Of a stretch of DNA of 64,000 nucleotides, positions 3,045-47,350 are shown piece by piece. Below the pieces are notes generated by a model. It had not been told where the DNA came from and did no database searches. It worked only from the letters and a program-made list of their open reading frames with translations. Within the stretch, counting starts at the first letter, position 1. Every line of letters starts with the position of its first letter. The position numbers and the translations under genes are program-made. The stretch is from Octopus sinensis (lineage: Eukaryota), in contig NC_042997.1 in the NCBI RefSeq assembly GCF_006345805.1, positions 60,140,001 to 60,204,000 on the forward strand. The letters run 5' to 3'.

Positions 3045-3230
3045 TTTATTTATTTATTGTGCACAGGGAGCTAAACATAGAGGGGACAAACAAGGGCAGA
3101 CAAAGGGTTTCAATCGATTACATCGACCCCAATACATAACTGGTACTTATTTAATCGACCCCGAAAGGATGAAAAGAAAAGTCGACCTCGGCGGTGTTTA
3201 AACTCAGAACGTAACGGCAGACGAAATACC
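3045..3230 (-). mobile_element. tRNA-SINE family A, headless body plus tail type 1
   Basis: Core gaccccgaaaggatgaaaagaaaagtcgacctcggcgg...aactcagaac shared with 9492-9698, 42451-42660 and 47139-47350; begins at internal GGTATTTCGTC on the minus strand. Confidence 0.85.
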
Positions 3231-5715
3231 AATTTCTTTATTGCCCACAAGGGGCCAAACACAGAAATGGACAAAACAACTGATTGGGATCAGTAATACG
3301 TTATGATTTTACATAAAATATGAATATAAAAATTATATAAAACAAAAAAACAATCGAATGAAATTAACCATGTAGAGACAACACAAATGTAGCGATGATC
3401 AGGCCACGCTTCGACCCCACAAGTCCCGATCTATCGCTGGTACCTTTTTTGTTGTTCTTTTATAGCCTATTCACACGGTTCCTTGCACGCACAACACTCA
3501 TACAACATGCTTCCATCTCTTTATGAACATACTCTCCGACATCACCTCTTCTCCAGGCACACCTTCCTTTTCAAATGAAAAGTAAAAAATGATCGTAAAT
3601 CGTGGCCGGAGACAAAGTTGCCTGTTTTAATCCCTTTTATCATAGTCTTCCATACTGCCTCTTTCACTATTGCTACAACCGTGAGAAAACAATTCTCACC
3701 TTGGTTTGTTAAAACTTCCTGTGGGTCAATTTTTATAATTGACTCAGTCGACAGCCGTACTCTTCCTTCGCCGGACAACAGGTGTTCAGCATAAATCCAC
3801 ATTTCAGATATCTCTGGACACTGGAAAATAGTGTGAGAGACGGTTTCCCTGCCTGTCTCCCCCGCATCTTAGACAGGTCGGAGATTGACGCTTACCATGT
3901 CTTGCACTCTTATCCCAAACGGGCAAGGCACCTGTGTAACATTATCAAGTCAAGGTCTTTTGGAAGTTGTCCAACGTTCTCAACCCGAATGTACGATGGA
4001 ACAGGCTGTCCAGCTGAATATACCCTAGACCTAGAGTCGCCCCCAGGCCATCGTCACATTCAGACTCTACCAACCCACTATATAAAATTCATGTGGCGCC
4101 CCCACCGCTGGCGTTGCCCGAGCGCCGGATTAGCTGGAGGGCCTCACGGCACTCTTTATGCCATTCACTCGATCTCGGTCTACGAGAACACTAGGCATCC
4201 TGTTCGCAAAAACTTTTGAACTCGGGGAATATTTGTCTGGCCAGCGGAGACCATAACCGTTCACCATCCAGGAGAATCCAGAGATGCCTCAACCTCAACG
4301 CATGCCTGCGCATCATTAACCAAGGCATCTCTAAACCTCCCTTTAACGGCTTTTGACAACAGACAGAGCATTTCACAAATGGTGACCTGCCCTTCCACAA
4401 AAAGCGAAAGCGCTGTCTCTCCAACCTGATCAACCACAAATCTGGACAGGGCACGACGGTCAGTAATGACAGATGCGATAAACACATTGGCTACCTCCGC
4501 CTTCCCTTTCAGGGATAGCCACCACCAAGACCAGGTCTTGACTACTGTAGCCACCCTACTCGAAACCTCCGTCCAGTTCTTCTCTATCTGGAGGCCTGGT
4601 CCAAATCAGACTTATAGCAAGTTAACCAGTCCCTCTCTCCAGCGCCCAACAACGCTGTCTAAAAGCATCAACTGACCAACCCAGGTGCCGAGCTGCAAGC
4701 CGACCGACTTTTTCCGGTTAATCTTTGCTCCTGTCACCGTCTCGTAAACCTCAATAGCCTTACCCACTTCACGCAGGCGTGCTATTGTGGTTACGCTGAT
4801 AGTGATATCGTCCGCGTAAGCTATAACAAACTTCTCTAAACCTGGTTCTCTCGGGATGCCACTCAACCTTCGCAGTAGCGGCTCAAGAGCTACCACATAC
4901 AAAAGTGGTGAGAGCGGACATCCTTGACGAACCGAGTGCCTGATGCAGAACGGCTTCGAAAGGAAATCGTTCACCCGAACTATCGAGTCAATGTTGTAAC
5001 ACAAAGCGATAAACCACCTGAGGAAGTCACGGCCCAGGCCGAACTGCGTGAGCTCAGTCGCCAGGTATCGATGGTCAACCTTATCAAAAGCTTTAGACTA
5101 ATCCAAGTGTACTAATACCCCACATTTGTCAGTTTTATCACCAACCCTCTCTATGGTATAGCGAATAAGGTAGAGATTATTTTGAATAGTTCTGCCTCGG
5201 ATGGCATATGTGTGTGCCTCCCCTACTATACCATTCTCTACACGCGCCAACCTTTTTGCTAAGACCTTGGCGAAAATCTTCACTTCTTCGTTTAACAGTG
5301 TGATGGGCCTGAAGTTATCTAAAACGTCACCCTTGTCCGGGTCCTTTCTGACCAACGTTACTACTCCCCGACGCACAGATCTGGAGATAAATCCATTCTG
5401 TTGCCAGTTTGCATACATGTCAGCTAGTAAGTACCCGAACAATCTGGTATACATTTATACAGCTCGTACAGAAGACCATTAAGTCCCGGCGACTTACCCG
5501 CTTTACAGTCGGCCATAGCCTCCATCACCTCCATAGGCGTGATCGGCTCTTCGCAAGACTCCGCATCCGACCCCGAGAGGCACGGCAGCTCGGCAAGAAA
5601 GTCCTCGAGGACTTCCCCACCATCAGGACCGCCAACACCCCCAAACAGCTGCGCGAATTACTCTTGAAAGGCCTCACACATTTCCTTGGGTTCATCATCG
5701 TAACCGACTTTCTAT
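3231..5715 (-). mobile_element. Tx1/L1-clade LINE ORF2 (RT and C-terminus) plus 3'UTR, with frameshifts and stops
   Basis: GKSPGLNGL, NFRPITLLN, KAFDKVDH, VRQGCPLSPLLY, AYADD, FLWKGR motifs; endonuclease domain absent. Confidence 0.92.
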
Positions 5716-6867
5716 ACGTGTTAAGTAATACATTATGAGTCTTTTTATCCATTTCGTAGAACTCGTAGTTCTTATATTTATCTGAAAGTTCTGCAATCCT
5801 AATGGCTGATTTTTTTCGCTTTTATTTCTCTCATTAAATCTTCATTTTTTGCTGTATAACGCGTCTATCCCTCTGTCTTCTGCTTCCTTCCTTACTATTT
5901 TTGGTTTGTCTCTTTTCACAGTTTTTTTTTGTCTTAGTTCGACCTGTTTTGGTTGATTTGAGCTTTCCATTTTTTTTGTTGTTAGTTGCTTTCTTTTTTC
6001 TGTTTCTCTCTCTCTTCTCACCATCGGATTCTTCCTCGCCGTCTCTACAGTGTTTTTTATATGGCCCAGCTGGCCACACTGGTAACATCGGGGCTTACGC
6101 CCCTCGACGAATACGTTAAGGAATTCCCTCCTAATTTCTATTTTCTCTGGTAACTGTTCTAAAATTGACTGTTCTGCTTGTATTAGGAGGTGAACCGTTT
6201 GACTGGTCCATTAAGCCTTTTCTGTGACGGTAGCCTTAAGGAGTGTTATATTATCTTCCTTTTTTGCCAGGACTGCCGTCATCAACCATAAAGGGTCGAC
6301 TTGAGGTGGGACCTTTGGTATACGCATCTTTGACGTCCTCATTACCAAATATATTGGAATTAAATAACGTCCTCCGTTTCTAAAGATTTAACTGAGTGCA
6401 TTTGTGCAGTTTCTATATCTTTTAGTCGTACTTCGATAGTACCAAACTTCTTCCGATGGGTTTCAAGCACTTCTCAACTTTCTCTTCTCTTACTCGATCA
6501 ATTTTTTTCCTTTTAGACAGTAAGATTTGAAAATAATTGATTTTCTTTTTTCTAACATTAATAGTTCTTCCGGAGGTTGAACTTTCACAACACTGTCTTC
6601 AATTGTTATCATATCTTTGTACTTTATCAGGTCATTTTTGTTTGTCGACAGCTGGCGGGTTCCACCTCCAACCGCCGACGCAAAACTTTTTTGTTTATTT
6701 TCTTCTGTTTGAAGGCTTTTCACGTCAATATCCCTCTTTGCAACAGTACACATTGATGGTTGGGGAAATTCACTTTCAGAAACATCCGAAATATCACCAA
6801 ATATTAAACTTTCAATATTTTTTGCCTCCCTTTCAGTTGAAATACATTTGTGGTTGCGTACAGTCAA
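5716..6867 (-). mobile_element. LINE ORF1 (gag-like) remnant with CCHC zinc knuckle
   Basis: VFVEGRKPRCYQCGQLGHIK(K)HC near 6048-6115 (one frameshift) = C-x2-C-x4-H-x4-C; SFASAV motif; K/E-rich segment. Confidence 0.7.
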
Positions 6868-7279
6868 TTAATTCGAGGGTAGCATTTAGCAAATATTTAT
6901 TTTATCGAGTACGGAAAGTTACGAGGCAATATCAACCATGTGAGATTTGAACTCAGAACATAACTAAAAGATATATAATCCAACGCTTCACTTCTACTAC
7001 TATCTTCCACTGTGATGAACAGGTAAAAAATGGTGAAAAAAATAATAAGAGGTAAAAGAATATCTCGCAGAGCATGATGATGAAACGCAGTGTTGCTATC
7101 TCATTATATAATCTAGAACAAACATTAGGGTTCTTCTTATTTCAGGAATTCCATGAATACTAAGTAAATATGAAGCAAAAATGGATTAGCAAAGCTTGCA
7201 TATATTTTCACAACCTACTAAAACCACAATCACAATGCTGACACTCACACACACATACGCGTATATATTTGTATGATTC

Positions 7280-44573: not shown

Positions 44574-47138
44574 ATTAATAAGTTTGAAATGGAGAGATTT
44601 AATGGATATAAATGAATTTGTTGATTGATTAACATTGCCTGCAAATTGTTCCACTTCGCACCCAATTTAAATTACAAAACATATATAATAATATAAGTTT
44701 ACATTGTGAGTATCCTGGGTGGAAGATCTTCAAGGTAAAATAGACATCACAGAGTTTACATTTTGATCAATTGAAATACTCCCACAGACTAACCAGATGA
44801 AAGCAAGTTTATTGTGTGTGCGTGTGCATTACTATTTTTATTTTTATTTAAATGCAACAATAATAATAATTAATTAAAGTATATAAGAATAAAAATAAAC
44901 GATAAAAATAAAGATTAATGATATGTAATGAAAATAATGAAATATATTAATAATAAAAAATAAATAAAATAAAAATGAAATGAAATGTTTTTTTAGAAAA
45001 CATGGATGTCCATGGTTCATTTTGGTTTATGTCTGAGTGTGTGTTTCTATGTTTATATGTGTGCTCGAATGCGTATATACGTATGTTTGCTAAGTTGATT
45101 TATGTGTACGTATGTGTATATGTGTGTCGGTATAAGGTTATTGAATACAAGCATGGATGTCATAGTTAATGTATGAGTGTGTGTGTGTGTTTATAGATCG
45201 TCACTGTTTATGTTGCTTTATTAATGCGTATATGTGTATGTATATTAGTAAAAGGTTATCGAATATTTCTATAACTATAGATGCATTTATAGGTACGGGT
45301 ATTCATAGCCCATTTCAGTTTGTGAATGATTGTTTATGTGTGTGTGTCTATAGATGTTTACTGTCTAAGTTGATTTATGTGTGCGTAAGTGTGTATGTAG
45401 TATGTTACCAACGTGTTATGAAGTCAAATCAGTTTGTTAATATACATATATAATCCCTTATATTCTTTAATCTAATTCATGTAAAAGTCAATCATAATCA
45501 TTATAATATGAAACAGTTAGATAATTAGTAAAGTAATTATATTTGTATTTGATTATTGATTCATAGTTTATTCTATATAACATTATATGTTTAAGTGTGT
45601 GTGTGAGAGAAAGCATCTATGGATACAGGCTTACGTTACGCATATAAGATTAGTACGTAGATATATTAAGTGTACTACGTCATCAGGATTGGTGCTATCG
45701 ATATATTTAAAATATTTGCATCCAAAATAAGATGTATTATATTATCTAATTAATAAAAATAATAAATACTCGATATTATTATTAAATTGATATTTAAGTA
45801 TTATATTATATAATATATACATACATCTCAGGAGGCGAGGAATACAAAAAAGAAGACAACACGAGAGGGACAATTGGTAAAGTGTCATGCTGTTTTGGAT
45901 ACTAATCCTTCACCAGAAGAAAGAGAGAAGGGAGAAATTAAAAAAGGAGTATGAATGTGGAAAGTGATTCGAAAAAAAAACGTGAAAGAGTTAGAGGTCA
46001 AGGGGTAATGTTATTCTATGAAGGAGTAGTTAGGAAGATGAGGAAGTTGTTTGGAATCATTACTTTTTGACAACTCTTAGTATCAAGGAGTTTTTTTTTT
46101 AATGCTTATACTGCAGACTGTATAAGATCAGCTGTTTGTTTAAACGAATTTTGATGTAATTGTGTGCAGTATATTTTTATTTCATTAATTTTGTTCTGCA
46201 GTCAAAAGTATGAATTAACTCAGTTTTATGTATTTAGATAATTTGGCTCCCCCAATACCGCGAGATCTCATCCATGGTTTTAGTTAGCTTATAGCCTGTT
46301 GCAGTTAATGACTTTAATTAATTATTGGGTTTTTAACTTTAAATAATGAAGAGTCAGCATACTTCAGAGTGTTTATCCTGATTAAAATGGAGCTATTGTT
46401 AAGTTCCTTGTTTTAATTCTTTTGAAGTAGACACTTTTAGAGGTTTTTGTAATAGTTCAGGAAGGCATAAGCTTGTGTGAAAACTTGTCAGATTCAGAAA
46501 TTATGAAATCTTGCTGATCTATGTCAATTTTTCACAATTTAGAGTGTTTTTAAGATGTTTTATCCTGCCTTCCTTTGTTATTATTATTCTATTTTTTTCA
46601 TATTACATAAGTTTATATTGTCAGAAATTTTATACTTTGTAGTTTTCAACTTCTTTCTTTGTTCTCTTTCATTGTTCTGTTCTCATTCTTAGACATTTAT
46701 GAGAGGAGTCGGTATTTAAATGCGATTTCCATTCAATAGTTATTATAATTACGACGGATAGCGGGTGAGAGATTTAGTAGCAGATTGTCAAACAAAGCAC
46801 ATCGCAATATTTAGTGACGTCAAGATATATGTACTAGAGTTTAGTTAGGTGACATTATGTTCTAGGATCAAATCTCGTCTAAATACATAGACTGGTATAT
46901 AAACATTTGAAGCTGTAGTTAATATTTTTCTCTTTGTTCCGTTATAATACCATTATTGATGGTTCAATGATAAAGATTCTAATTATTGTTGCGTCATCTG
47001 TCATAATCCTTTTACTTAATAGCTTTCTTATTTTCTACTTGATGTGAAATGGCTGAACAATAAATAATCATCGGAGTATCAGTTCATAAGTCATGAATTT
47101 GTAATCAAACACTTCGTCGTGGCCTAACTAAATTAATT

Positions 47139-47350
47139 GGTTTCAAATATTGACAGAAGGCTAGTAATTTGGGGGGCGGGGTTAAATCGATTACATTGAC
47201 CCCAGTACTCAACTATTTCTTATTTAACTAGTCCGAAACAATGAAAGGCAAAGACGATCTCGGTAGAATTTGAGCTCAGATTGTAAAGACAGACGAAATA
47301 CCGCTAAGCATTTTATCCTGCGTGCCAACGATCCTGCTAGCTCACCGCCT
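47139..47350 (-). mobile_element. tRNA-SINE family A, full length, tail type 2
   Basis: Collinear with 9492-9698; retains the intact site TAGCGGTATTTCGTC. Confidence 0.85.

Follow-up and report, generated by a model that had tools for sequence, protein, structure and literature searches.

LINE families of Octopus sinensis insert at one fixed base inside a SINE that is their likely passenger

Site-specific LINEs usually rely on targets that are supplied by the host or by an unrelated element. In the nearest published case to the one we describe here, judging from the available part of the source, crocodilian Tx1-Mar LINEs and SINEU-1/2/3 have a common target within Mariner-N4_AMi (Kojima 2015, PMC4494074). 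Precedents for pairing between element RNA and the target have been described for R2Ol, R1Bm and SART1Bm (extracts of PMC6795142 and PMC7265360). Here we describe a system of nested LINEs and SINEs, a variant of target-specific L1/Tx1-type elements, in which two LINE families (A and B) enter one fixed base inside a common SINE, the target being the LINE's own likely passenger. The original prediction was that such a LINE targets this SINE, and the ends of both families bear out sequence-specific insertion.

The window, a 64,000-nucleotide stretch of the O. sinensis genome, carries a dead family-A insertion (Table 1), whose ORF2 stop we located through homology to intact family B. The two are 87% identical in DNA over 3231-5693; the endonuclease part has been deleted from the ORF2 remnant of the window copy, which also lacks the SINE head and ~250 bp of the LINE 5' end. 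The headless SINE body contains a B-box-like motif. A small GCCC/GGGC hairpin predicted in the LINE 3' terminus was not significant against shuffled sequences in 4 of 4 folds.

Table 1. Features of the LINE/SINE locus and of the intact SINE in the window
Feature	Position	Strand	Remarks
Tail-1 of host SINE, common to LINE 3' end	3045..3110	-	83% to young tail-1 over 64 bp
Headless host-SINE body, starting exactly at the target site	3114..3230	-	91% to young body, its positions 1-117
Target site GGTATTTCGTCT	3219..3230	-	3' copy of the 12-13 bp repeat bordering full-length family-A copies
LINE 3' terminus common with SINE tail-1; no poly(A)	3231..3277	-	
LINE 3' UTR	3231..3470	-	Upstream ORF2 stop TGA at 3473-3471
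ORF2 remnant, broken, reverse transcriptase kept	3471..5693	-	RVT_1, E 1.7e-19
ORF1 remnant, broken, CCHC knuckle	5700..6840	-	zf-CCHC E 0.0012, below curated cut-off
Degenerate old SINE body fragment directly upstream of LINE, not the missing head	6894..6964	-	71%
Intact tail-2 SINE	47135..47350	-	Empty site TAGC/GGTATTTCGTC at 47303/47302

Read on the minus strand, the LINE terminates ...AAAGAAATT at 3231 and the SINE body begins GGTATTTCGTC at 3230. The LINE end (from 3233) had been described as similar to the adjacent SINE tail (from 3053), and over 44 bp the two are indeed 77% identical (E=0.003 in a within-window comparison), rising to 88.6%, again over 44 bp, when a younger SINE tail is used. 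That the LINE end abuts an internal site of the SINE is likewise confirmed, as the intact copy reads continuously through TAGC/GGTATTTCGTC. The missing SINE head and target-site duplication at the LINE's 5' side, conceded at the outset, stayed missing: LINE homology ends at ~6840, and neither was present there or up to 20000. The 5' end and SINE head of the window copy were likely lost through later deletion.

In order to define the 3' ends of the window's family, we searched with positions 3277-3700, a query that excludes the shared tail, and scored the best 40 of 767 candidates, which gave 30 loci; the LINE copies sampled throughout are best-scoring matches rather than all genomic copies. 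In 28 of the 30 loci, the window copy counted, a LINE-type tail is followed by the site GGTATTTCGTC, and as the query lacked positions 3231-3277, this recovery identifies them as LINE sequence and not a separate SINE fragment. The exceptions are a copy without the tail (L018) and one with an altered end (L023). All four additional copies found by a pattern search lie at the site, bringing the family-A total to 32 of 34; the downstream flanks, whose randomness would have spoken against targeting, are thus non-random. Among the SINE halves 3' of family A, 9 carry tail-1, 17 tail-3 and 1 tail-2 (1 was unreadable), so that other-tailed SINEs make up 18 of the 27 readable hosts and tail-1 hosts, at 9 of 27, fall below background (p=0.014).

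A search with the family-A 5' region (30 loci) recovered 20 copies with a recognisable 5' end, and every one of these has the 12-13 bp site directly upstream, preceded by the SINE head in 4 and by a body-tail-1 unit in 16. Such a tail-1 unit before the 5' end characterises 16/20 family-A copies (L032-L059) versus 0/31 in family B. We dropped the idea that the upstream SINE unit is inherited with family A, since co-segregation of unit and LINE was absent among 15 of the 16 copies in tail context (Mantel p=0.85). The other 10 loci comprise the window copy, 3 shortened copies and 6 with a different upstream repeat. In these six (L044, L045, L048, L050, L052 and L060), the ORF1 start is joined to another common repeat, whose beginning, CTAGCAGAGATA in the three loci read that far, resembles a Helitron-like end; the joined sequence is possibly a captured LINE fragment. 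In 13 of 14 5'-short family-A copies, as in the window copy, neither a SINE head nor further LINE sequence was found within 10 kb upstream, and the notion that these copies are merely interrupted holds for just 1 of the 14. Because internal deletions are common in older family A and true 5' truncation is rare in family B (1/30 within 1.5 kb), later deletion is the likely explanation for the 5'-short copies.

Family B provides a young and intact counterpart. In a protein search, an open 1134-aa ORF2 turned up in many copies, and the 20 regions that we fetched comprised 11 of family B and 9 of the more distantly related families C. Both ORFs of family B are intact, a 520-aa ORF1 with a zf-CCHC domain above the cut-off and a 1134-aa ORF2 with APE, RT and zf-RVT domains. 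Its 3' ends lie at the site in 35 of 37 distinct copies, and all 31 full-length 5' ends are preceded by the SINE head and a 16-bp copy of the site; L227, a 5'-truncated copy of 720 bp, still has both. Pairs of family-B LINEs have a median identity of 0.993-1.000, while the SINE halves that border them (head 0.881, body 0.902) are exactly as divergent as 48 background SINEs (0.881, 0.902). No pair of flanks reaches an identity of 0.99, and SINE body identity does not track LINE identity (rho -0.04). Near-identical LINEs within flanks of background-level divergence indicate that family B inserted independently, one copy at a time, into older SINEs. Every readable family-B host carries tail-1 (34/34 versus 55/88 in background, p=5e-6). 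The tree of family B has weak resolution: of its 28 inner branches 1 is starred, and the bootstrap had not settled.

At the 3' end of one locus (L212), six target bases separate family B from the 5' end of a LINE related to it (84-86%), a case of one LINE stacked on another at the same site. Family B is present in sequencing runs from 8 organism codes, and on a contig in run X14, which belongs to a different organism code, 50 bases made up of SINE head and site are joined to the family-B 5' end (L093:1002-2184).

The two copies of the target that border family B are not simple duplicates. Across 27 readable copies (the 31 minus 4 with disrupted junctions), the 16-bp copies mismatch each other in 22, with a mismatch in the first 7 bases in just 1; only those first 7 bases behave as a duplication, and a classical target-site duplication is therefore not what borders family B. 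Base 14 of the 5' copy tracks the LINE lineage, being T in 11/14 older versus 3/17 younger copies (p=0.001), and in 16 of the 27 it differs from the corresponding base of the 3' copy. Base 1 (C or G) always matches between the sides and is also lineage-linked, with C-type sites at 22/31 in family B versus 19/91 in background. Agreement of this base at both junctions was considered as proof of target origin and discarded, because the tree shows that the base follows the LINE lineage. As part of the apparent duplication is lineage-linked, it was likely carried in RNA. Only the 16-base copy of family B reaches bases +14 to +16, the family-A copy being 12-13 bases, and it is these bases that distinguish tail-1 SINEs (mostly CCG) from tail-2/3 SINEs (mostly TCT); the tail-1 preference of family B could come either from a longer endonuclease footprint or from RNA-DNA pairing.

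For an unbiased view of the SINE itself, we took 1 Mb as twenty blocks of 50 kb placed at round coordinates, and found its body at 178 loci. Of 108 tail-1 ends, 43 continue into a body that starts at the site, compared with none of 62 tail-2/3 ends; counted per locus, stacking at the site occurs at 18/68 tail-1 loci versus 0/57 others (p=9e-6). The head-(body-tail)n arrays that the original prediction anticipated thus exist, and they do so only in the subfamily that shares the LINE tail. Downstream partners in the arrays vary in tail type. Within each of the three longest arrays the units are much alike (0.93-0.98, versus 0.88 between arrays), suggesting that they likely grew locally after seeding, and dimers and short arrays range from 0.75 to 0.96, the short ones often being divergent. 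The C1 (L111-L115), C20 (L196-L200) and C25 (L206-L210) blocks contain arrays with 11, 7 and 8 body-tail units, respectively, and each array has private variants. Outer duplications enclose whole arrays (L093).

Away from the site, the SINE is far less strict than the LINE: 50 of 68 tail-1 SINE loci have no on-target junction, whereas ~95% of LINE ends are on target. Duplications (median 16 bp) accompany 35 of 43 complete tail-1 elements in a permissive search run without a control. Flanks of terminal tail-1 copies start with GGT in 12 of 60 cases versus 1.06% expected (p=2e-12), GGT lies inside the genomic duplication in several off-target copies, and TGG and ACA, with which the family-C targets begin, open none of the 60 flanks. 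LINE and SINE therefore have in common an insertion signature (the same junction base, the off-target GGT bias and duplications) as well as a 3' end, two marks of a stringent-type SINE/LINE pair, although the latter is common to several LINE families.

Neither ARAGORN nor Rfam returned a tRNA match that would support a tRNA origin of the SINE. Inspection by eye showed A-box-like and B-box-like motifs flanking the target site. A second landing site, within the SINE head, is visible where a tail is followed by AGAAACGTTAGC (the upstream end of L257, and L012, L019, L024, L036 and L040); SINE tails occupy this site, as does, in L257, a different element whose tail is family-C-like.

The nine family-C loci carry a similar tail but have different fixed targets or a tandem arrangement, and because the tail occurs on these families too, it does not by itself name the LINE partner. 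Loci L102, L103, L105, L106, L107, L108 and L110 contain intact sister families, at 73-75% identity in the RT piece. One kind of fixed 3' flank is found in L102/L103 and another in L106/L108/L110; other copies are arranged head to tail.

Families A and B are L1-group non-LTR retrotransposons: family B combines an ORF1 with an ORF2 that has APE, RT and a C-terminal zinc domain, and in a PDB comparison its ORF2 matched human L1 ORF2p (E 1.9e-64) better than R2 (E 1.6e-20). A Tx1 label is plausible and fits the behaviour of the elements, which insert sequence-specifically into multicopy targets (A and B at the SINE, families C at other fixed targets). A CCHC knuckle in ORF1 and the lack of a poly(A) tail are Tx1-clade features, though not diagnostic ones; both are present, the LINE end ...AAAGAAAT joining the target directly. 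No Tx1-named protein occurred among the 120 and 45 matches listed, the cluster members or the Atlas clusters. Against chimeric L1 endonucleases, whose loops we assume to be those given in their PDB names, the endonuclease scored 41.6 bits with the R1 loop, 39.9 with the native loop and 36.5 with the Tx1L loop. The closest named protein relative of family-B ORF2, among the matches listed, is from Argonauta hians (61%). Fish relatives from Coilia grayii (P0109, P0110 and cluster members) have consecutive gene numbers on one contig, which suggests a tandem array of a related LINE.

Families A and B nest at a fixed base of the SINE, and we consider it quite probable that the tail-1 SINE moves on the same enzymes and that the LINE carries a copy of its target. 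The A/B endonuclease likely nicks the SINE site sequence, and target-primed reverse transcription would begin there. The LINE RNA would begin with a stretch of target sequence, 12-13 nt long in A and 16 nt in B; the cDNA could then pair with the upstream target to complete the insertion, as happens in R2. The tail-sharing SINE subfamily likely borrows the LINE's enzymes while providing its landing sites, and mobilisation of tail-1 SINEs by the A/B LINEs would account for their exclusive stacking at that base. SINE RNA copied at the site would pair at its own internal site to yield head-(body-tail)-body-tail, and long arrays may afterwards grow via local duplication. Tail-1 SINEs would also land genome-wide at loose, often GGT-starting sites, thereby creating new target sites, either because the same machinery is less strict in trans or through the action of sister LINEs. 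Given that the LINE is much stricter than the SINE and that the tail is not partner-specific, sister families may do much of the spreading.

The loop envisaged at the outset, in which the LINE both mobilises the SINE subfamily and targets it, consequently stands in part. It is tight for family B, with its uniformly tail-1 hosts. It is not closed for the window's own family A, and it leaks at three points: the other-tailed majority among family-A hosts, the tail shared with families C and the tail-1 loci that lie off target.

Who spreads the SINE bears directly on this account. Conceivably the LINE does target the SINE, with other tail-sharing LINE families mainly spreading it and the arrays arising from a few dimer masters and DNA-level duplication. 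The similar tail on families C with different targets, the off-target position of most tail-1 copies with duplications of their own, the homogeneity of the long arrays and the outer duplications around arrays are all consistent with this, as is unequal recombination, the published account of SINE tandems in the available parts of PMC10702118 and PMC11481361. However, the array junction coincides with the LINE junction base and is exclusive to tail-1, downstream partners vary in tail type and short arrays are often divergent, and the off-target sites are enriched for GGT with none of the family-C target starts; we therefore regard this explanation as rather improbable. Far less credible is that the SINE halves belong to the LINE, so that a head-LINE-body composite moves whole or read-through drags along the 3' half of the SINE. 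The partly lineage-linked 5' target copy and the headless 5'-short family-A copies would fit such movement. Yet the flanks diverge like random SINEs around LINEs that are 99-100% identical, the tails and unit numbers downstream vary, the truncated L227 retains head and site, and in 13 5'-short copies no duplication spanning LINE and SINE tail exceeded the control (scores 4-9, with 10 as the control's 95th percentile). We rejected composite or hitch-hiking movement on the flank divergence and the lack of a spanning duplication.

A closer contest concerns how the target is chosen. The endonuclease alone might do so, with the tail-1 and C-type preferences reflecting longer DNA recognition and the inherited 5' bases being a LINE end that resembles the target, a reading to which we give slightly less than an even chance. 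The specificity of APE-type Tx1 and R1 elements derives mainly from the endonuclease, according to the available text of PMC4494074 and PMC4640811. In our data, host bases +2 to +7 are invariant (0/168 mismatches versus 7/288 in background), and an endonuclease substitution sets apart the 7 oldest family-B copies. On the other hand, G-type targets are lacking in the older B group (0/11 versus 9/20 in the younger, p=0.012), yet the younger copies use G-type and C-type alike with no distinguishing LINE variant at a count of at least 4. In addition, both copies of the site carry C in two B copies, behind a head type for which background SINEs show no C (0/91), and one variant common to three G-type copies is confined to the 5' copy. 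We also entertain, tentatively, a self-feeding pair steered by RNA, in which family B would carry copies of its last landing sites on its RNA ends and pair them with nicked DNA. Family B might in this way select the very SINE subfamily that it copies, each SINE that it spreads serving as a new landing pad and each stacked SINE seeding a satellite, a scenario that we hold to be possible but on the unlikely side.

A passenger that occurs at ~178 loci per Mb sampled offers a safe and renewable landing site, and a passenger that is also the target creates feedback between driver LINE and passenger SINE. Since a LINE insertion that separates the A-like from the B-like box would switch off the SINE copy concerned, the loop is likely to have a built-in cost. 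Tandem arrays derived from SINEs, which occupy 18 loci in the Mb sampled, could also be explained by this system. With an intact, near-identical family B and sister families aiming elsewhere, target switching of APE-type LINEs becomes testable, and the same group of LINEs makes it possible to test whether RNA ends or the endonuclease alone set target choice.

Our literature search found no LINE targeting its own partner SINE in cephalopods, although Repbase, subscription papers and supplements may describe these families; the available portions of a 2026 octopus repeat annotation (PMC13282606) and of PMC3747384 make no mention of such an arrangement. Among described systems, Tx1L (Xenopus, into Tx1D), Keno (U2), Kibi and Koshi are likewise APE-type LINEs with a fixed multicopy site, but their targets are a DNA transposon, RNA genes and microsatellites, which, in the available account, those LINEs do not spread (PMC4494074). 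The self-insertion hotspot at Alu position 133 resembles our SINE in that a SINE enters its own copies at one base and in sense orientation (Levy et al., PMC2836564, in part). The Alu hotspot is, however, a statistical feature of a loosely specific L1 system, and the available part of that paper does not describe confinement of L1 to Alu, whereas here ~95% of sampled LINE ends are on the site. Arrays of SINE parts that are more uniform the longer they are also occur as SINE satellites and tandems in squamates and bivalves, where, in the extracts available, they are ascribed to unequal recombination with no site-specific LINE tied to the junction (PMC10702118, PMC11481361). As in R2, R1 and SART1, whose element RNA with flanking target sequence aids accurate insertion, a target copy on the RNA may contribute here; the targets of those elements are host-made rDNA or telomere repeats (PMC6795142, PMC7265360, both in part), and unlike in those systems, pairing in the octopus is deduced from inherited variants only. 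The closest parallel remains Tx1-Mar/SINEU, which, as far as the available text describes it, also combines a Tx1-type LINE and a likely passenger SINE with one target in another transposon, 16-bp duplications and tandem SINE insertions (PMC4494074). There, the target is a third element and the tandems consist of whole SINE copies, whereas in the octopus the likely passenger SINE itself contains the target and the tandems are built from headless body-tail units.
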